DNA from: Gaiellaceae bacterium
GTDB taxonomy: Bacteria; Actinomycetota; Thermoleophilia; Gaiellales; Gaiellaceae
Assembly (NCBI GenBank): GCA_035310325.1
Contig: DATGEH010000204.1
Span: 1-60,994 of the forward strand
Direction of reading: 5' to 3'
DNA: 60,994 bases
Positions within the stretch are counted from its first letter, which is position 1. Every line of letters starts with the position of its first letter. Position numbers and translations under genes: made by a program. Positions 14,138-56,734 of the stretch are shown here, piece after piece. The notes below the pieces were generated by a model. That model did not search any database. It was not told the DNA's origin and worked only from the letters and a program-made list of their open reading frames with translations.

Positions 14138-14248
14138 CGGCGGGGTCAGACCCCGCTGCGCGGTAAAGGCGGGGTCAGACCCCTGCGCAGCGGAAAGGCG
14201 GGGTCAGACCCCGCGCAGCGAACGGCGGGGTCTGACCCCGCGCAGCGG
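14136..14248. repeat. Four tandem ~28-nt units, each carrying the palindrome GGGGTC(A/T)GACCCC
   Basis: Units start near 14136, 14165, 14194 and 14221: AA(A/C)GGCGGGGTCWGACCCC..GCGCAGCGG. There are no spacers between units. Confidence 0.9.
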
Positions 14249-14251
14249 CAC

Positions 14252-14424
14252 GGCGGAAAGAGAAAGGCCCCGGCTGCGGCTCCGGGGCCTTTCTGAGAGG
14301 CGCGCCCATCGTGTGCGGCTCCGGAGATTCGGCTCTGCGGCTCAGCCGCATCTCCGTTCTACCGCCGGATGTGCCGGCGCGCCCCCTGCGAACCTGAGCC
14401 TGGCGTCGGCCGCGGTTGCAAGGT
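14252..14424 (-). ncRNA. Candidate stand-alone small RNA (~170 nt), family unknown
   Basis: Bounded by a near-consensus promoter (14431-14459) and a hairpin with a T-rich tail (14261-14294) on the minus strand. It contains internal pairing (two GGCGCGCC copies, GGAGAT/ATCTCC, GCGGC-TGA-GCCGC) and no credible ORF. Confidence 0.5.
14261..14294 (-). terminator. Intrinsic terminator hairpin (13-bp stem, 8-nt loop)
   Basis: agaaaggccccgg-ctgcggct-ccggggcctttct. On the minus strand the stem runs into TTTCTCTTTCC; on the plus strand it is followed by gagagg. Confidence 0.7.
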
Positions 14425-14430
14425 GGCCCC

Positions 14431-14459: not shown

Positions 14460-14590
14460 GTGGCTCGGTCAAGTAGTCCTCGCTGCGCACGGTTGACCGC
14501 CAATCGCGGCTATTCATAACCCTTTTGGGTGATGGCCGGAGTGGCCGGCTTGATCTTTGGTGAAGCGTAGGGTTGACTTCCCTTGAGCCT

Positions 14591-15931
14591 ATGAATCACG
14601 ACGCCGCCCTTCGCCGCCAGGCTGTCCCGACCTCGCTCGGGCTCGGCGAGCGCCTGCGCCAGCTCCGCATCGCTGCCGGGCTGACCCAGACCGAGCTCGC
14701 GGGCGACCGCTGCTCGAAGGAATACGTGTCGCAGATCGAGCGCGGGAAGACGCGTCCGACGCGAGAGACGATCGAGTGGCTCGCGGTCCGGCTCGGCGTC
14801 GACGCAGGCTTCCTCGCGAACGGCGTCGCCACCGACGAGCGCGCGCGGCTCGACGCCGGCCTCACCCGCGCCGAGGCGCTGCTCGAAGTTCCCCGCAACG
14901 AAGATGCAGCGGAAGCGTTCGCGACGCTCATAGCGTCGGCGCGAGCGACGGGCCTGCAAGACCTGCTGGTGCGCGCATTGCGTGGCGCGGGTCGCGCGCA
15001 GATGCGCATCGGCGGGCTCCGCCAGGCGCTCGACCTCCTGAACGAGGCGCGCGGAATCGCCGAAGCCGAGACCTTCTCCGATGTCGAACGCGCCGAGGTG
15101 CTCCTCACGCTCGGCGTCTGCCGGTATCAGCTGAACAGCACGCAGACCGCGATCGGGCTGCTGAACGAGGCGCTCGCGCTCGCCGACCGGGCAGAGCTTC
15201 CGTCCGACTCGCTGCGTTCCCAGATTCTGTCGTGGCGGTCCCGCTGCTGGCGCCGCCAGCGCGACTACGAGGCCGCGCGGGAGGACATCGAGCGCGCATT
15301 GCAGCTCGCCGAGGACGCCGCCGATCCCGCGACGATCGGAGCCGCGTACTTCCAGGCGTCGCTCGTCGCCGACCGCGAAGGGCACTGGGTGCTCGCGCGC
15401 ACATACGCCGAGCGCGCCCGCTCGGCGTACGAAGAGCTCTCCGACCGCGTCTTCGTCGGCCAGCTGACGAACAACCTCGGCGCGATGAACTTCCTGCTCG
15501 GCAAGACCGACGAGGCGATCGCGCTGCTCAAGGAGGCGTTCGCCATCGCGCTCGAGACCGGTCGCGACACCGATGCCGGCCGCGCGGTCTCGTCCCTCGC
15601 GCAGGTGCATCTGCGCACCGGGAATGTCGAGCAGGCGGAGGAGCAGGCGCGCCATGCGCTGCGGCTCCTCGACGGCCGCGAGGACTATCTCGACGAGATC
15701 GGCAGCGTGCAGCTGGTGCTCGGCCGCGCGCTGCTCGAGCAGGGCCGGCTCGACGAGGCGGAGGAAGCCCTGGCGGCGGGCGAGGCGAGCTACGAACAGC
15801 TCGGCTCGGCGAGCCATCGCGCGGTGGCATGGATCGCGCGCGGCGATCTCGCGGCTCGGCGCGGCGATGACAGGCTTTCGGCGCAGCTCTACCGGAACGC
15901 TGCAGAGGCGTTGCAGGACGTCAGGTTCTAG
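14591..15931 (+). CDS. XRE-family HTH regulator with a long TPR-like C-terminal domain
   Basis: HTH LGERLRQLRIAAGLTQTELAG..YVSQIERGKTRPT followed by ~370 aa of helical repeats. The ATG at 14591 is preferred over the TTG at 14573. Confidence 0.8.
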   Translation: MNHDAALRRQAVPTSLGLGERLRQLRIAAGLTQTELAGDRCSKEYVSQIERGKTRPTRETIEWLAVRLGVDAGFLANGVATDERARLDAGLTRAEALLEVPRNEDAAEAFATLIASARATGLQDLLVRALRGAGRAQMRIGGLRQALDLLNEARGIAEAETFSDVERAEVLLTLGVCRYQLNSTQTAIGLLNEALALADRAELPSDSLRSQILSWRSRCWRRQRDYEAAREDIERALQLAEDAADPATIGAAYFQASLVADREGHWVLARTYAERARSAYEELSDRVFVGQLTNNLGAMNFLLGKTDEAIALLKEAFAIALETGRDTDAGRAVSSLAQVHLRTGNVEQAEEQARHALRLLDGREDYLDEIGSVQLVLGRALLEQGRLDEAEEALAAGEASYEQLGSASHRAVAWIARGDLAARRGDDRLSAQLYRNAAEALQDVRF

Positions 15932-15950
15932 GCGAGAGGAGGTGAACGAC

Positions 15951-16061
15951 GTGAAGAAGAAGTTGATGATGATTTTGCTGGCGGCAGTCGTGATCGCGAT
16001 CGCGGTCGCGAGGGCGCACGGCATCGAGCCGGCAGGCTTGAGCGACGGCGGGTACTTCTAG
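15951..16061 (+). CDS. Unannotated 36-codon ORF: signal-peptide-like pro-peptide MKKKLMMILLAAVVIAIAVARAHGIEPAGLSDGGYF
   Basis: GGAGG lies 8 nt upstream of the GTG. 33 of 36 codons end in G/C. It starts 20 nt after the regulator stop and is followed by a hairpin. Confidence 0.55.
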   Translation: MKKKLMMILLAAVVIAIAVARAHGIEPAGLSDGGYF

Positions 16062-16073
16062 TCGGTCGTTTGC

Positions 16074-16109
16074 GGACTGAGCGCGCTGCGGTCCTGTGAC
16101 GCTCAGTCC
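16074..16109. terminator. Hairpin with 10-bp stem and 16-nt loop between convergent genes
   Basis: ggactgagcg...cgctcagtcc, with no clear T-tail. Confidence 0.45.
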
Positions 16110-16140
16110 GGCGGGTAGGGGAAAAGATCTGCGGTGTTGT

Positions 16141-28158: not shown

Positions 28159-29019
28159 CTACGCTGCGAGTGTTGCGCCGGCGGGGATGAGGCCCCGGCC
28201 GTAGCCCACGAGGAGGTACGCGCTCGCGAGCCCGGCCCATTCGCCGTACCGCGCGAGCAGCTCTTCCGTCTCCGCGCCTTCGACCTCGCGGCCGAGCTGT
28301 GCCCGCAGGAGCTTGATCAGCCCGAGGTCGCCGACGAGCCCGCGGTCGTAGCGGCCGAGCCCTTCGAGGCAGACGACGCCGACCGACCACGGCCCCAGCC
28401 CGCGCTCGCGCCCGAGGCGCGACATGACGACGGCGCTCGGCTGGTCGTGCAGACGCTCGAGCTCGAGCGAGCGGCAGATGGAGACGAGCGCTGCCGCGCG
28501 GCGCGCATGCAGGCCGAGCGCGCGCAGGCGAGCCGGCGCGAGCACGCCGAGGTCGGCGGTCGTCGGCGACACGTGCAGTCGACTCGGGCCGGCGGCGCAC
28601 AGCGTCCGCACGATCGTCTGCTCCAGGCGGCGTGCACGCTTCGACTCGATCAGCTGCCCGCAGAACGCGCGCAGGAGCGCATGCGCGACGGTCGGCACGC
28701 GCAACGGGCGCAGGCCGCGCAGCTCCCGCGATGCGCGGCCGAGCAGCGCGTCGTCACGGACGTGGACGAGAAAGTCGGAGTGATCGTCGTCGAGCGCGAG
28801 GATCCAGCGCAGTCGCTCGGCGCCTACCGCGGAATCGGCCCGAATCGTCACCGTTCCATTCGGCGACTGCCGCGCGGCCGCCATTTCGACGCCCCCGTCG
28901 ACTGCGAGCGCCTGCGTCAGCACGCCGTCGCGAAACGTCCTGGTCGCATCGCTCGCGATCCGTGCCGACAGGGCGAGCGAGTACGGCCCGCGTGGCGTGA
29001 CCGCGAGCTCGACGCTCAA
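28159..29019 (-). CDS. HhH-GPD DNA glycosylase (AlkA-like 3-methyladenine glycosylase II)
   Basis: HhH region LGPWSVGVV followed by GDLGL. The proposed TTG start at 29019 overlaps the TGA of the upstream regulator (TTGA). The start is uncertain. Confidence 0.65.
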   Translation of the reverse strand: MSVELAVTPRGPYSLALSARIASDATRTFRDGVLTQALAVDGGVEMAAARQSPNGTVTIRADSAVGAERLRWILALDDDHSDFLVHVRDDALLGRASRELRGLRPLRVPTVAHALLRAFCGQLIESKRARRLEQTIVRTLCAAGPSRLHVSPTTADLGVLAPARLRALGLHARRAAALVSICRSLELERLHDQPSAVVMSRLGRERGLGPWSVGVVCLEGLGRYDRGLVGDLGLIKLLRAQLGREVEGAETEELLARYGEWAGLASAYLLVGYGRGLIPAGATLAA

Positions 29020-30335
29020 CGCTCGGCGTGCGCTTCTACCCGCGTCGCGCGCAGCATGAGCTCCGTCGCGCGATCGAGGATCTCGGCCGCCTCGTGGTCG
29101 CGGCCGATCTTCTGGAGGAGGTGACCCCACGAGCGGCACGTCTGCGCCGCCTCGCGCAGGAGCCCCTGATGCTCGTGCAGCTGCGCCGATCGGCGGTACG
29201 ACTCCTCCGCGCCCTCGTCGCCGGAAAGGGCAAGGGCGTTGGCGCGTGCGGCGAGCGCATAGCCCTCGTCGGCCGGGCTCAGCCCTTCGATGGCGAGGGC
29301 GCGCTCTGCGAACAGCCGCGCGTTCTCGCCATCGCCGCGGGCGGCCGCAATCCGTGAACGTAGGATCTTCATCTCGGCGCGATCCTCGACGGACGGCGCG
29401 GCGCCGAACAGTTTCGTCGCGTTGTTCAGATGCAACTCCGTCGCATCGGCGTCCTCGCGCGTGATGGTGATCCGCGCTGCGAGGAGATGCGCGCGGGCGA
29501 GGTGGAAGGAGTCGTCGGTTGCCTCGAGCAGCGCGATCGCCCGGCGCACGTTCGCAAGGGCGACGCTCTCGCGACCCTCCTTGTGCGCGAGCCTTGCCAT
29601 CGACCAGTACAGGCGAACGCGCATGTAGGGGTCGTTCGTGTCCTTCACGAGCTCGAGCGCGTGCTCGACCACCGCTTCGGCCCCCGCGAGATCACCGCTG
29701 TCGGTGAGCGCATAGCTCAGCAGCGTCGCGTACCGGGCTGCCAGCGTGGGCTCGCCTGCGTCCTCGGAGCCCTGCACGCAGCGCTCGAGCAGAATCGCGG
29801 CTTCGCGCACGCGGCCGTCGCCGGCGTATGCGCGGCCCAGGGCCGTGTAGATCTCGAAATGCTCGACGGGACGGAAGGGCTCGTCCGCGACTGCTGCCTC
29901 GAGCAGCGAGGTGGCGCGGTCGAACTGGCCGCGCTCCTGCGCGAGCGCGGCGAGAGCGGCCCGCGCGCGTGCGGCGGCTGCGAGGTCGGCGGCAGCGAGG
30001 GCGTCGGCGAGGACGGCTTCGAGCCCCGTGTCGATGCCCTCGGTTTCGCCGAGACGTACGGCAAGCTCGAGCTCGGAGAGACGCAGCTCGCGCGCCTCCG
30101 CGGAGTCGAGGCTCGAGCCGGTTTCGAGGTAGTCGGCGGTGACGCCGAGCTTCACCGCAAGCTTGCGCAGCGCCTTGACGGAGGGCTGGCGCGTCCCGGC
30201 TTCGATGCGGGAGATATACGCGTACGAAACACCCGGAGCAGCAAGCTCACGCTGTGACAGACCCCGCTCTAGCCGCAGTCGCTTGAGTCGCTGCCCGATC
30301 GTCTCGCCCGCGGCAGGCGATTGGTCGGAAGCCAT
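29016..30335 (-). CDS. XRE-family HTH regulator with a long TPR-like C-terminal domain (paralog-like to 14591-15931)
   Basis: HTH IGQRLKRLRLERGLSQRELAA..YAYISRIEAGTRQPS followed by ~370 aa of helical repeats. 439 aa. Confidence 0.8.
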   Translation of the reverse strand: MASDQSPAAGETIGQRLKRLRLERGLSQRELAAPGVSYAYISRIEAGTRQPSVKALRKLAVKLGVTADYLETGSSLDSAEARELRLSELELAVRLGETEGIDTGLEAVLADALAAADLAAAARARAALAALAQERGQFDRATSLLEAAVADEPFRPVEHFEIYTALGRAYAGDGRVREAAILLERCVQGSEDAGEPTLAARYATLLSYALTDSGDLAGAEAVVEHALELVKDTNDPYMRVRLYWSMARLAHKEGRESVALANVRRAIALLEATDDSFHLARAHLLAARITITREDADATELHLNNATKLFGAAPSVEDRAEMKILRSRIAAARGDGENARLFAERALAIEGLSPADEGYALAARANALALSGDEGAEESYRRSAQLHEHQGLLREAAQTCRSWGHLLQKIGRDHEAAEILDRATELMLRATRVEAHAER

Positions 30336-30444
30336 TCGCCAGCGATTCTGAACCCTTTGGGGAGATTCGTCAATGGAACCTCCGCCGTCTTGTCAACTCC
30401 TCATGCTTCCTAGTTGACCTGCGTCAGCTGGAAAGGAGGGAAAA

Positions 30445-30543
30445 GTGCGCCGCTACGTCCTGTACGCGAAGCTCGTGACGATCGTGCTCGTTCTGAGCGC
30501 GATCGCGATCTTCATCGCCGAGGCCCCTTGGGGCCCGGACTGA
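30445..30543 (+). CDS. Unannotated 32-codon ORF: hydrophobic pro-peptide MRRYVLYAKLVTIVLVLSAIAIFIAEAPWGPD
   Basis: GGAGG lies 5 nt upstream of the GTG. 30 of 32 codons end in G/C. It is divergent from the regulator at 30335 and followed by a hairpin. Confidence 0.5.
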   Translation: MRRYVLYAKLVTIVLVLSAIAIFIAEAPWGPD

Positions 30544-30553
30544 GCCTCCTGAC

Positions 30554-30589
30554 CAGCGGGCGGGCGCCGGTGACGGCATCCGCCCGCTG
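30554..30589 (+). terminator. Hairpin with 10-bp stem and 16-nt loop after the mini-ORF (terminator or attenuator)
   Basis: cagcgggcgg...ccgcccgctg, no T-tail. It sits 15 nt before the next ATG. Confidence 0.4.
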
Positions 30590-30604: not shown

Positions 30605-32026
30605 ATGACGGTCGTCGAGCTGGCTGTCTACGCGCTGCTCCTGGCCGTTGCTGCCGCCGCAGTCTGGCGTCGGCCGCTCGTCGCCCTCTACCTCTTCGTC
30701 GTCGGCCTCGCGCTGCACAACGCCGCGATGGCCGCGCTCTACGCCGCCGGCGTGCGCGGGAGCACCCTCACCGCGATCACGGCGTGGAAGGAGATCCTTC
30801 TCGCTGTCGCCCTCGCGCGCGTGATACGAGATGCGGTCCGCGAGCGGCGTCTTCCGTTCCGCCCTGGGATCGTCGATGCGCTCGCGCTCGCCTTCGCATT
30901 CCTCGCGTGCGTATACGCGCTCATCCCGCAGTCGGCGCTCGGCGGGCTCGCCGATCGGCATGCCGTCGCGCTCGGGCTTCGCCACGACGTCTTACCGGTC
31001 GGCGCGTTCTTCCTCGGCCGTGCGCTCGTCGTCGGCCGCGACGACGTGCGCCGGATCGCGTGGACGCTGCTCGGCACCGCCGCCTTCGTCGCGACGCTCG
31101 GGATCGTCGACGTCTACGCGGTGCCGATCGGCTGGTGGCGGACGAACGGCGTCGTCGACTACTTCCACAAGCACCTCGGCTACCACTACAACGGCACCGG
31201 CGGGCTGCCGGAGAACTTCATCTACAACGTCGGCGGCGACAAGCCGTTCCTCCGCCGCCTCGTGTCGACCTTCCTCAGCCCGCTCGCGTCGGGCTACCTC
31301 ATGGTCGTCGCGCTGCTGCTCGCGCCGCGTCGGCGCATCGCGATTCCGCTCGCGGTCGTCGCGTTCGCGGGCCTGCTGTTCACGTTCTCGCGCTCGTCGC
31401 TCGTCGCGCTCGCCGGCGGGCTCGTCGTGCTCGGCGTTCTGCGCCGCCGCACACCCGAGCTCGCGGCAGCGGTCGTCGTCATCGCGATCGCCGTCGGCTG
31501 GGCGCACGTGTTCCCGAAGATCGCGCCGACGGGCCGCTTCACGAAGGCCGACCTCACGTTCCAGCATCAACACGCGGGCAACTCGACCGCGAGCTTCTCC
31601 GCGACGAGCTCGAGCGAGCCGTCGCTGCACGAGCACTGGCTGGCGCTCAAGGACGGCATCCGCACGATGATTCATCACCCGCAGGGCTATGGGCTCGGCA
31701 ATGTCGGACAGACCGCGTCGCGCACGGGCACGCCGCTGAAGGCGGGTGAGTCGAACTACACCGAGCTCGGCGTCGAGCTCGGCGTGCTCGGCGCGCTGCT
31801 GTGGGCCGCGTGGGGGCTCGCGGTGCTCTGGGGGCTCGTGCGGGCGCGGGCGGCGACGATGACGGCGGCGTTCGCCGCGATCCTCGCCCTCGCGGTGCAG
31901 ACGGATGTCATCGGCGACCCGTGGGTCGCGTACGTCGTCTGGGGCCTCGCCGGCGCACTCCTCTTGAAGACGCGTCCGCAGGAGCGTCTTGCGGGTGCGG
32001 CAGCGCCCACCGTACCGTTGTCCTGA
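30605..32026 (+). CDS. O-antigen ligase/polymerase-like (Wzy_C family) membrane protein
   Basis: 473 aa, polytopic, with an FTFSRSSLVALAGG-type region and a large loop. Confidence 0.65.
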   Translation: MTVVELAVYALLLAVAAAAVWRRPLVALYLFVVGLALHNAAMAALYAAGVRGSTLTAITAWKEILLAVALARVIRDAVRERRLPFRPGIVDALALAFAFLACVYALIPQSALGGLADRHAVALGLRHDVLPVGAFFLGRALVVGRDDVRRIAWTLLGTAAFVATLGIVDVYAVPIGWWRTNGVVDYFHKHLGYHYNGTGGLPENFIYNVGGDKPFLRRLVSTFLSPLASGYLMVVALLLAPRRRIAIPLAVVAFAGLLFTFSRSSLVALAGGLVVLGVLRRRTPELAAAVVVIAIAVGWAHVFPKIAPTGRFTKADLTFQHQHAGNSTASFSATSSSEPSLHEHWLALKDGIRTMIHHPQGYGLGNVGQTASRTGTPLKAGESNYTELGVELGVLGALLWAAWGLAVLWGLVRARAATMTAAFAAILALAVQTDVIGDPWVAYVVWGLAGALLLKTRPQERLAGAAAPTVPLS

Positions 32027-32482
32027 GTGACAACAGCACGATTGCTCTTCCTCGCCGCGCTCGCGGCTGGGCTGCTCGCGGTCTTTCTCGCCGTGCGCCC
32101 GCACCGGGCGCCCGTCCTGCCGCGCACCGCAGGCGTCGCGAGCGCGGCGGTGACCCAGGCGAACATTCGCGCAACGATCTGCCGCGCCGGCTGGACGAAG
32201 ACGATTCGTCCTCCCGTCGCGTACACGAATGCGCTCAAGCTGAAGCAAATGCGCCAGTACGGCGAGCGCGGGGCGCCGTCGGCGTATCAGGAGGACCACC
32301 TGATCAGCCTCGAGCTCGGCGGCGATCCGACCGACCCGCGCAACCTTTGGCCGGAGCCGTATCCGCGTGCGGCTTCGATGGATCAGATCGAGAACGAGCT
32401 GAACCACGCGGTCTGCGCAGGGAAGCTCTCGCTGCAGGCGGCGCAGGCCGAGGAGTCGAAGATCAAGCACACGCGGGGGTAA
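32027..32482 (+). CDS. Membrane-anchored/secreted HNH-like (beta-beta-alpha-Me) nuclease-fold protein
   Basis: N-terminal hydrophobic anchor. YQEDHLISLELGGDPTDPRNLWPEP resembles an HNH core. The GTG directly follows the upstream TGA. Confidence 0.5.
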   Translation: MTTARLLFLAALAAGLLAVFLAVRPHRAPVLPRTAGVASAAVTQANIRATICRAGWTKTIRPPVAYTNALKLKQMRQYGERGAPSAYQEDHLISLELGGDPTDPRNLWPEPYPRAASMDQIENELNHAVCAGKLSLQAAQAEESKIKHTRG

Positions 32483-55041: not shown

Positions 55042-55786
55042 TGCGGGCCTCCGGCTGCCAGGGGACGACGAAACGCTCGGCGAGGGTGACGAGCGCGTAC
55101 AGCGCAAGCGCGAGCGCGCTCAGAGCGAGCACGGCCGCGAAGATGCGTGCGGTCTCGAGCGCGGGCTGGGCCTGGAGGATCACAAAGCCGAGCCCGGCGG
55201 AGGAACCGGCCCACTCGCCGAAGACGGCGCCGACCGCGGCGTAGGTTGCCGCGACGCGTGCGCCGGAGAAGATCGCCGGCAACGCGCCGGGCAGCTCGAC
55301 ACGGCGGAAGATCGCGAGCCGGCCGCCGTGCAGCGTCCGCATCATCCGCACCAGCTCCGGATCGGCGGAGCGGAGGCCGTCCACGGCGTTGACGACGATC
55401 GGGAAGAAGCAGACGACCGCGACCACGATGAGCTTCGGCTCGATCCCGTAGCCGAGCAGGATCGCCAGGATGGGCGCTAGCAGCACGGTCGGCACGGTCT
55501 GCGAGAGCACGAGGATCGGCAGCAGCGCCCTGCGGAGTGCGGTCGAGAAGTGGAGCACGACGGCGATCGCGACTGCGACGGCGACCGCCAGCAGGTAGCC
55601 GAGCGCCATCTCACGCACGGTCACGAGCGTCGCGCGGCCGAGCAGACCGGCGTCGTCCACGAGGGAGGACGCGACTGCGGTGGGCGCAGGGAAGAGGTAG
55701 TCCGGCACGTGCGCGGCGCGCACGACCAACTCCCAGACGCCCACCGCGGCTGCGAGGAGCGCGAGGGGTGGCCAGATCCGTCTCAT
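55034..55786 (-). CDS. thiX: ABC transporter permease (ThiX-like)
   Basis: 250 aa with 6 TM-like segments. The stop overlaps the thiY start and the start overlaps the thiZ stop. Confidence 0.65.
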   Translation of the reverse strand: MRRIWPPLALLAAAVGVWELVVRAAHVPDYLFPAPTAVASSLVDDAGLLGRATLVTVREMALGYLLAVAVAVAIAVVLHFSTALRRALLPILVLSQTVPTVLLAPILAILLGYGIEPKLIVVAVVCFFPIVVNAVDGLRSADPELVRMMRTLHGGRLAIFRRVELPGALPAIFSGARVAATYAAVGAVFGEWAGSSAGLGFVILQAQPALETARIFAAVLALSALALALYALVTLAERFVVPWQPEARNA

Positions 55787-56568
55787 CCGATCGCCTCCAG
55801 TGCCCGCTCGCGCAGCTCGACGAAGGCCGGGCTCGTCACGACTTCGCGTCGCGGCGCGTCACGCGAGACGTGCACGTTCAACTCCGCGGCTATCCGACCG
55901 TCGGCAAGCACGAGCACCCGCTCACAGAGGAGCAGGGCCTCCTCGACGTCGTGGGTGACGAGCAGCACCGTCCGCGGTTCCGCCCTCAGTGCTGCGCCGA
56001 GCCATTCCTGCAGTTCGGAGCGTGTGATCGCGTCGAGCGCGCCGAACGGCTCGTCCAAGAGCAGCACCGGTTTGTCGGCGAGCAGCGTGCGCAGGAACGC
56101 GACGCGCTGACGCATCCCGCCCGAGAGCTTCGCCGGCCGCAGCCGCTCAGCCCCTGCCAGGCCGAGCCGTGCGAAGAGCGGTGCCGCGCGATCGTGTGCC
56201 TCGCGTCGCGGGACTCCCGCGTTTTCGAGCGCGAGCGCCGCGTTGGCGAGCGCGCTCCGCCAGGGAAGAAGACAGTCGCGCTGCGGCATGAGCGCGCAGC
56301 GTGTAAGCCGATCGCCTGCAGCGGTCGCGTCGCCGACGGAGATCTCGCCGGCATCGGGTTCGTCGAGGCCTGCCACGAGCGAGAGCAGCGTCGACTTCCC
56401 GGCACCGCTCCTGCCCACGATGCCGACGCGTCCCTGTGCAGGGACGACTACGTCGAGGCCGTCGAGTGCGCGCTTCTCGCCGAACGCCCGGACGACCCCT
56501 TCTGCGACGACGCTGACTCCGCCCCCGCGGAGCGGTGCGGCGTTGACTTCGGCTATCGACGGCGACAA
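55783..56568 (-). CDS. thiZ: ABC transporter ATP-binding protein (ThiZ-like, NitT/TauT family)
   Basis: Walker A GRSGAGKST, signature LSGGMRQRVAFLR, Walker B LLLDEP. The TTG start at 56568 is immediately 3-prime of the riboswitch. Confidence 0.7.
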   Translation of the reverse strand: MSPSIAEVNAAPLRGGGVSVVAEGVVRAFGEKRALDGLDVVVPAQGRVGIVGRSGAGKSTLLSLVAGLDEPDAGEISVGDATAAGDRLTRCALMPQRDCLLPWRSALANAALALENAGVPRREAHDRAAPLFARLGLAGAERLRPAKLSGGMRQRVAFLRTLLADKPVLLLDEPFGALDAITRSELQEWLGAALRAEPRTVLLVTHDVEEALLLCERVLVLADGRIAAELNVHVSRDAPRREVVTSPAFVELRERALEAIG

Positions 56569-56571
56569 GCG

Positions 56572-56660
56572 GCTCCCTTCGCCGGCATGACCCGGATCAG
56601 GTTCGACGGGTACACGCTAGGAAGCGCTCTCTCAGCCCCTCGCATAGGGGCTCCCCGGTA
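56572..56660 (-). promoter_or_regulatory. TPP (THI-box) riboswitch
   Basis: Minus strand: CGGGGAGCCCCTATGCGAGGGGCTGAGAGAGCGCTTCCTAGCGTGTACCCGTCGAACCTGATCCGGGTCATGCCGGCGAAGGGAGCC. It contains the conserved CUGAGA, ACCUGAUCCGG.UAAUGCCGGCG.AGGGA-type core. Confidence 0.9.
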
Positions 56661-56734
56661 GTCGAAGCTTACCTCCGGGCTGTCCCAGCGAGGCGATCCT
56701 TGATTCGGAACGCCTCTCGCAGCGCGAAGAACTC

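Follow-up and report, generated by a model that had tools for sequence, protein, structure and literature searches.

Peptide quorum sensing through cytoplasmic receptors built of tetratricopeptide repeats (TPRs) is regarded as a trait of Firmicutes and of Firmicute phages, and many of the Firmicute systems are mobile and divided into pherotypes. Could signalling of the same logic operate in the Gaiellaceae, abundant and largely uncultured soil Actinomycetota? The question is raised by a 60,994-nucleotide stretch of DNA from a Gaiellaceae bacterium (GenBank assembly GCA_035310325.1, contig DATGEH010000204.1, positions 1 to 60,994), analysed here as a whole and referred to as the window. Two loci of the window, A and B, each pair a gene for a helix-turn-helix (HTH) regulator with TPR-like repeats (RegA, RegB) with a mini-open reading frame (mini-ORF) for a short peptide (pepA, pepB). 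An earlier note, made from the sequence of the window, had read locus A as a peptide signalling cassette of the RNPP/Rgg type. RRNPP_detector, a tool built on a five-point signature, was applied to Firmicutes and viruses only, and Actinomycetota typically use small-molecule signals such as gamma-butyrolactones (PMC10075063); a study of RRNPPA evolution was likewise done on Firmicutes (PMC9765709). In the library available for searching, we found no comparable account of RRNPP systems or peptide quorum sensing from Actinobacteria or Gaiella.

Our answer has two parts of different strength. Both pepA and pepB are very probably real and functionally tied to their regulators. As to whether the two loci form paralogous receptor-propeptide cassettes with an RRNPP/Rgg-like mode of action, and are hence candidates for such signalling in Actinomycetota, our judgement is evenly divided.

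Conservation of pepA and pepB

RegA (14591..15931, plus strand, ATG to TAG) has 446 amino acids (aa), with an XRE HTH at residues ~18-77 followed by TPR-like repeats, and its exact product is already a called protein in public data. The coordinates given in the earlier note are correct, and its domain order agrees with the Pfam and AlphaFold2 results: residues 18-73 correspond to HTH_31/HTH_3 and beyond them many TPR families are matched (HTH_31 1.8e-13, TPR_12 6.4e-24). Homologues of RegA comprise 6510 proteins at E<=1e-5, the named ones all coming from metagenome-assembled genomes (MAGs) of Gaiellaceae, Gaiellales or Thermoleophilia. Co-directionally, 19 nt after the RegA stop codon, starts pepA (15951..16061, plus strand, GTG to TAG), whose 36-aa product MKKKLMMILLAAVVIAIAVARAHGIEPAGLSDGGYF, a pro-peptide or micro-protein, is not among the called proteins in public data. 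A Shine-Dalgarno sequence GGAGG (15938..15942, plus strand) stands 8 nt before the GTG, 33/36 third codon positions are G or C, and the product has a basic MKKK N-terminus, a 16-residue hydrophobic core and a C-terminal G-L-S-D-G-G-Y-F. The position of pepA, the spacing of its GGAGG, its third-position composition, its basic start and its hydrophobic core had all been described correctly before.

Is such a layout more than an accident of a GC-rich genome? We scanned the 61-kb window for Shine-Dalgarno-led mini-ORFs of 20-60 aa whose products start with a basic N-terminus and contain 14 or more uncharged residues in a row. Three matches were found, against 0.13 expected in shuffles, and the intergenic ones are pepA and pepB only, each beside an HTH-TPR gene, so that the layout exceeds chance.

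Conservation was surveyed in 80 loci of species-representative genomes, with regulators 63-79% identical to RegA, of which 78 were evaluable after leaving out L067, with a truncated regulator, and L077, where the anchor motif was missed. Conservation of the mini-ORF beside orthologous regulators, a check suggested in the earlier note, was borne out: an intact same-strand mini-ORF lies behind the orthologous regulator in 75 of these 78 Gaiellaceae loci, and in L008, L057 and L079 it is interrupted by a stop or a frameshift. The orthologous ORFs start 10-42 nt past the regulator stop and are 32-43 aa long (family median 36), and a GGAGG(TG)-type site stands 5' of the mini-ORF in nearly all of the 80 loci. 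Their products share an M-T-K-A-R N-terminus, an uncharged core of ~18 residues, a variable Gly-, His-, Pro- and Lys-rich linker, and the C-terminal motif G-[MLF]-[SN]-D-G-G, followed by 1-5 variable residues.

The G, D and G of the G-x-x-D-G core are invariant in all 58 anchored sequences. The invariant Gly column is nevertheless encoded by GGC in 29 sequences, GGG in 27, GGT in 8 and GGA in 5; all six codons are in use in the Arg column and both AGY and TCN in the Ser column, and the start codon is ATG in 16 sequences, GTG in 21 and TTG in 29. Invariant residues held through synonymous codon changes and start-codon swaps show selection on the amino acids. The overall ratio of nonsynonymous to synonymous change (pN/pS) of 0.69 tells little, since substitutions have reached saturation and the linker varies extremely, and we therefore relied on the column-wise codon analysis. 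A family profile search, seeded with a 42-aa orthologue as its first sequence, recovered 317 clusters in a set of 5.8 billion proteins, each a 'hypothetical' of 34-43 aa and none with a Pfam family. On this comparative evidence pepA is a genuine, conserved protein-coding gene tied to its regulator across a bacterial family. The end of the peptide evolves fast: for 226 of 285 pairs of regulators with at least 85% identity, the peptides differ past the DGG core. Since co-variation of tail class with the regulator tree is inseparable from shared descent, we used these data solely as a sign of fast tail evolution.

The earlier note had also mentioned a second, similarly built locus at 29016-30589. 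Such a locus exists and its make-up is similar, but its mini-ORF is divergent from the regulator gene and not downstream of it. RegB (29016..30335, minus strand, 439 aa) is a paralogous HTH-TPR regulator, 27% identical to RegA over 275 aa and with 2839 homologues. Across a divergent gap of 109 nt lies pepB (30445..30543, plus strand), preceded by AGGAGGG (30434-30440) and encoding the 32-aa peptide MRRYVLYAKLVTIVLVLSAIAIFIAEAPWGPD, which is already a called gene in public data. In a survey of 81 loci (80 metagenome loci with RegB identity of 55-71%, plus the window) pepB was found in 73, at a median length of 32 aa and with a consensus that opens with M-S-R-x-x-L-Y-V-[KR], runs through a hydrophobic stretch of ~16 residues and closes with L-G-x-[ED]-P-W-G-P-x. 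The PWGP motif is nearly invariant (P 73/73, W 73/73, G 72/73, P 73/73) and is maintained with synonymous codon variation. Over the two peptide families, invariant Gly, Arg, Ser and Pro columns each draw on 3-6 codons, with serine switching between AGC and TCN. By the same kind of comparison, a second and paralogous regulator owns a conserved mini-peptide gene. Two or three slightly differing copies of pepB stand in tandem between regB and the downstream Wzy_C gene in 17 loci (L087, L088, L089, L093, L096, L097, L119, L121, L131, L134, L137, L140, L141, L142, L146, L147 and L149).

Selection on the amino acids also bears on the idea that the mini-ORFs act mainly in cis and that their products are immaterial, with pepB translation tuning the Wzy_C operon and pepA affecting the stability or termination of the regA mRNA. 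We hold this to be very improbable. It has support at locus B, where pepB lies directly 5' of a strong hairpin (30554..30589, plus strand, -34.1 kcal/mol, z-score -3.5; a terminator or attenuator) and of the gene for a Wzy_C (O-antigen-ligase-like) membrane protein (30605..32026, plus strand, Pfam Wzy_C 7.6e-11). A GC-rich hairpin follows pepA as well, at about 16073..16110, between pepA and the convergent SDR gene; it has the 10-bp stem GGACTGAGCG/CGCTCAGTCC that had been noted earlier, may mark the end of the regA-pepA transcript and carries no U tract, and comparable hairpins occur 3' of pepA in many related loci. At -27.7 kcal/mol (z-score -1.4) it is unexceptional at this GC content, and as it is not significantly stabler than shuffles we do not rely on it as a terminator. 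However, conservation of a motif at the amino-acid level through synonymous changes is not expected if translation alone matters, and pepA stands downstream, not upstream, of its partner gene.

Fold and family of the regulators

AlphaFold2 models of RegA and RegB (predicted local distance difference test, pLDDT, 89.3 and 90.3) show a five-helix HTH and then ~18 helices, that is about nine TPR-like pairs, with no membrane segment, and the Pfam TPR families matched are TPR_12, TPR_2, TPR_16 and TPR_1. This architecture resembles that of the RRNPP/RRNPPA receptors of Bacillota (PlcR-PapR, NprR-NprX, Rap-Phr, PrgX, AimR-AimP), which are cytoplasmic proteins of 250-500 aa with an XRE HTH and a TPR superhelix; NprR has 9 TPRs. 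Do the regulators then belong to these families? A search with hidden Markov models of the RNPP and Rgg families, proposed in the earlier note, was negative: neither RNPP_C nor Rgg_C (TIGR01716/PF21259) matched the regulators at E<=0.1 in Pfam or NCBIfam, which sets them apart from both the RRNPP and the Rgg-SHP receptors. In a profile search of the PDB the TPR part led to LGN, and the HTH alone to DdrO, ComR, PlcR and SinR; PlcR, ComR and Rgg aligned in the HTH only, and RapJ reached E=0.31. Together these searches found no sequence-specific relation to RNPP_C, Rgg_C, NprR, AimR or Rap.

A structural comparison had likewise been suggested beforehand. Foldseek against the PDB placed generic TPR superhelices first, led by LGN/Pins, a binder of extended peptides, and by designed consensus TPR proteins. 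The complex of PlcR with PapR7 and DNA (3u3w), Rap phi3T, RapJ and Rap pLS20 were significant matches (E 4e-7 to 1e-5, template modelling score 0.49-0.67), at ranks 21-45, behind LGN and the designed TPRs and alongside MalT domain III. With generic TPRs ahead and Rap and PlcR significant but lower, the fold permits peptide binding but does not by itself place the regulators in RRNPP.

The weak best similarities in NCBIfam and Pfam were to the TPR regions of actinobacterial regulators of the same phylum and of their relatives (AfsR TPR region, NsdA_fam_reg, TPR_MalT), and domain III of MalT was a fold match. All of these scores are below the curated cut-offs: the NsdA family (NF053720) gave 31.8 bits for RegA and 23 for RegB against a cut-off of 75, and TPR_MalT 44.4 and 41.3 bits against 45. 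Unlike these proteins, the regulators contain no STAND ATPase (NB-ARC/AAA+) or SARP domain. Moreover, we know of no NsdA, AfsR or MalT family with a conserved adjacent mini-peptide gene.

Membrane topology and the signalling reading

By heuristic measures, the N-region of the peptides carries a charge of +2 and the C-side one of 0 to -1, the uncharged run spans 17-18 residues and the 19-residue hydropathy is 2.2-2.45; pepA and pepB are accordingly predicted to be oriented N-in, C-out. With the C-terminus predicted outside and the regulators soluble, a direct link between peptide and regulator needs release and import. A motif outside and a receptor inside follow RRNPP logic, yet are also compatible with an envelope-acting membrane micro-protein.

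How far does the resemblance go? Four of the five features of the RRNPP signature are present in both cassettes (features as in PMC10075063): a propeptide of 10-100 aa (pepA 36 aa, pepB 32 aa), a receptor of 250-500 aa (446 and 439 aa), receptor TPRs (by Pfam, and ~9 helix pairs by AlphaFold2) and direct neighbourhood of the two genes, with adjacency conserved in 75/78 A and 73/81 B loci. The fifth is a secreted propeptide, with a Sec signal by SignalP or SHP-like export by PptAB; on this point the charges and uncharged run described above stand beside the rarity of a strict AxA in pepA and a core that could be a membrane anchor. The RNPP/Rgg-like cassette proposed at the outset thus stands as regards the conserved adjacent peptide genes and these four features, and fails as regards homology to RNPP_C or Rgg_C.

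If the pairs signal, a cytoplasmic HTH-TPR regulator would be encoded beside a pre-peptide of 32-40 aa, whose basic N-terminus and hydrophobic core of ~17-18 residues would carry it into or across the membrane. The C-terminal part, G-[MLF]-[SN]-D-G-G plus 1-5 variable residues for A and x-[ED]-P-W-G-P-x for B, would be released outside, re-imported and lodged in the TPR groove of its cognate regulator; once bound, it would alter how that regulator acts on the TTGAC-type repeats of the regulator's own control region. At locus A the likely outputs would be regA-pepA and a divergent small RNA (sRNA), at locus B the pepB-Wzy_C operon. In this scheme we infer the target genes and each step from export and cleavage to re-import and peptide-TPR binding, and unlike in the RRNPP systems, secretion, import and binding are here putative.

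The peptides themselves supply analogies in favour of this circuit. Each regulator family has its own motif at the extreme C-terminus of the peptide, which is the pheromone position: the Phr, PapR, AimP, SHP and XIP pheromones sit at the very end of the peptide (see also PMC10075063). Tandem pepB copies and fast tail change recall the propeptide multiplication and specificity drift known in Rap-Phr-type systems (PMC9765709). As in RRNPP/RRNPPA systems, an adjacent small ORF has a basic start and a hydrophobic core, a short motif is conserved at the C-terminal end of the propeptide, and there are paralogous channels with distinct peptides and duplications of propeptide genes; locus A, with its co-directional downstream peptide gene, is arranged as plcR-papR and aimR-aimP. 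Locus B is closer to the Rgg-SHP and ComR-XIP systems of streptococci, in which the pre-peptides are also very short (pepB 32 aa), with a positive N-terminus and a C-terminal active part, and in which the peptide gene is divergent from a regulator with an HTH plus helical repeats, with conserved repeats at the divergent promoter. In contrast, the C-termini of SHP and XIP are hydrophobic, those of pepA and pepB polar, with Gly/Asp/Pro/Trp motifs. These genomes are not known to offer a PptAB or Eep context.

Several observations weigh against the signalling reading, beginning with the preference of the TPR part for LGN and other generic superhelices and with the lack of any family match described above. 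Processing is the next. The earlier note had proposed cleavage at an A-R-A site, but this site is not a conserved feature of the family: a strict AxA is seen in 12/69 pepA sequences (47/73 for pepB), and the released product of 14 aa is thus a guess. The pepA hydrophobic core is long enough for a stable membrane anchor. In 18/69 pepA sequences a lipobox-like Cys (L-A-C or L-G-C) ends the hydrophobic core; this sub-clade comprises orthologues of L029-L061, for example L029 (4338-4454), and lipoprotein-type processing is hinted at in it alone. The window contains no Opp genes, and neither locus has a peptide importer, an exporter or a maturation enzyme linked to it. Finally, both pairs are, judged by synteny, single, vertically inherited core loci with a family-wide motif, unlike the many mobile Firmicute systems: these pairs are chromosomal and syntenic in Gaiellales, of the Actinomycetota and not the Bacillota, their peptide core motif is shared by the whole family, and their signal-peptidase site is not conserved. 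The order MFS-TetR-[sRNA]-RegA-pepA-(0-2.5 kb variable)-SDR-SelD-CtaA-PAC2 is conserved at locus A; locus B is flanked just as constantly, its two halves being 6PGL-ProC-unknown-RegB and pepB-Wzy_C-151-aa protein.

Much of this evidence would suit the main alternative role, in which pepA and pepB do not diffuse as signals but stay in the membrane as stable single-pass micro-proteins, and share expression with the regulator next to them or are under its control. The conserved tails outside the cytoplasm would work on a partner in the envelope, for pepB the candidate Wzy_C protein, while the TPR domain would sense a small molecule (as MalT domain III) or another protein. An uncharged run and hydropathy well inside the membrane-helix range, the absence of a conserved signal-peptidase site in pepA, TPRs that resemble MalT domain III and AfsR/NsdA-type proteins at least as much as RRNPP receptors, and the core, vertical inheritance of the loci all fit such a role. 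So does the neighbourhood of pepB, which could belong functionally to the Wzy_C gene always found downstream: the Wzy_C gene stands beside pepB in 51 B loci, which is essentially all with enough sequence on that side, and is followed by a conserved 151-aa protein without a Pfam match (30605-32482 in the window; L081-L160). We nevertheless consider this role rather unlikely. No enzyme partner accompanies pepA, which in the window closes a two-gene regA-pepA unit and whose next gene varies by species, and the link between regulator and peptide outlasts the switch in gene order from family A to family B, while linkage to other genes does not. Furthermore, conservation is strongest at the extreme C-terminus with its free carboxylate, as in processed pheromones, and tandem duplications of the peptide gene would be unusual for a stoichiometric subunit.

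The lipobox-like cysteines also touch on another possibility, namely that the mini-ORFs encode precursors of post-translationally modified peptides, either lipidated and morphogen-like or similar to ribosomally synthesized and post-translationally modified peptides (RiPPs). The HTH-TPR protein would then be a pathway regulator and the C-terminal motif a modification or recognition site for enzymes encoded elsewhere. Short precursors that end in a sharply conserved motif with much Gly, Asp, Trp and Pro fit the idea, and NCBIfam gave a match to the RiPP-associated TPR protein HaaT, but a weak one, at 28 bits far under the cut-off of 1125. Of radical-SAM, YcaO, lanthipeptide, peptidase and ABC-exporter genes, none is conserved beside either locus; both are flanked by housekeeping and metabolic genes only, and the M16, M20 and S9 peptidases found elsewhere in the window are unlinked. 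Moreover, the N-terminal part of the peptides resembles a signal or anchor more than a leader peptide. We regard modified precursors as very improbable.

Control regions and a candidate divergent small RNA

What would the regulators act on? The inverted repeat CGGTCAA-N20-TTGACCG (14466..14499), suggested earlier as an operator, is indeed present between the promoter of the sRNA and regA, and it is conserved in alignment columns across A loci. The arrangement GTCAA-N20/21-TTGAC recurs at a fixed distance, 105-141 nt 5' of regA, in 50/80 A loci and in 0 shuffled controls. Its assignment as an operator is less secure, as the TTGAC(C) arms could simply be -35 boxes: the arms are TTGAC(C/A) hexamers and may be operator half-sites, back-to-back -35 boxes, or both. 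An analogue is found in the divergent control region of regB and pepB (30368..30419), where CGTCAA ... CTTG(A/T)CAA ... TTGACC repeats form conserved blocks across 75 loci; the pair CGTCAA...CTTGACAA, with GTCAA-N(8-24)-TTGAC spacing, is present in 49/75 B loci and again in 0 shuffled controls. A promoter-like TTGACG-17-CAGAAT is oriented toward regB. Two further elements were seen in these regions, a AACCCTTT(T)GGG(G/T) sequence just 5' of both regulator starts (14519-14535 and 30343-30355), conserved in part, and a conserved hairpin GAGTCCCTCGTTCGAGGGACT in the pepB 5' leader of many B loci.

The 450-nt spacer between the TetR gene and regA also contains a candidate structured sRNA of ~170 nt (14257..14428, minus strand), divergent from regA. 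Its promoter, TTGACT-17-TATAGT (14459->14431), is near the sigma-70 consensus and both hexamers are conserved. Three stem-loop modules are predicted, the last being a terminator hairpin with a U-rich tail (folding z-score -4.7), and the invariant GCCGCAG recurs in two loops. The sRNA is kept at 72-86% nucleotide identity in 66 loci. In an alignment of 64 sequences 94.8% of cells pair, compensatory changes occur in 15/31 pairs, and covariation is 0.269, compared with 0.146 in shuffled and <=0.10 in slid controls. It had no match in Rfam, either at the gathering threshold or at E<=10, and it is present in one copy in the window and absent from B loci. As AimR controls the neighbouring small RNA gene aimX, an sRNA divergent from regA is a further likeness to that system, and the sRNA is a possible target of RegA. 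Just 3' of the TetR gene (14168-14250) lie three tandem repeats of ~29 nt, GGCGGGGTCAGACCCC(T)GCGCAGCG, each with a GGGGTC/GACCCC palindrome; these repeats are not conserved in orthologous loci.

Drawn out to its full extent, the signalling reading would give the family two orthogonal pheromone channels, 'DGG' leading to the divergent sRNA and 'PWGP' to the Wzy_C envelope-polysaccharide operon, with RRNPP-type logic having arisen or persisted outside Bacillota. We put this forward tentatively, as a possibility that we doubt more than we believe.

Other features of the loci

With synteny conserved at both loci, a mobile-element reading was rejected. IMG/VR viral contigs gave 4 matches, all at the HTH level and with no phage-borne cassette, and PHROGs gave HTH-level matches only, so that an arbitrium-like phage origin is unsupported.

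In many species an insert of up to ~2.5 kb separates pepA from the SDR gene; the window has none. In L006, L009, L011, L015, L017, L018, L021, L027, L030, L034, L037, L038, L042, L045, L060, L071 and L078 the insert encodes a 532-aa protein, which from its motifs appears to be UbiB/ABC1-kinase-like. In other loci a gene of the 1-Cys peroxiredoxin-like or rhodanese-like type is present, either by itself (e.g. L001, L007, L012) or beside the gene for the 532-aa protein. The MAG MFD10113.bin.2.175 has two copies of the MFS-TetR-RegA-pepA region (L004, L019) with different peptides, which reflects either a mixed bin or a large duplication. L015 comes from a MAG labelled Acidobacteriota that is probably mis-binned. 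Elsewhere in the window, a thiamine pyrophosphate (TPP) riboswitch (RF00059, 65.6 bits; 56557-56667, minus strand) lies upstream of a minus-strand ORF (55783-56568).

Significance

Even if the signalling reading fails, the analysis adds three new conserved elements, namely two unannotated families of micro-proteins (pepA with at least 317 clusters) and a structured sRNA. If the pairs do signal, RRNPP logic would reach a second phylum, among the most abundant uncultured lineages of soil, and there would be two concrete peptide families to synthesise and test. This would provide a handle on gene regulation in the Gaiellaceae and possibly on their cultivation.

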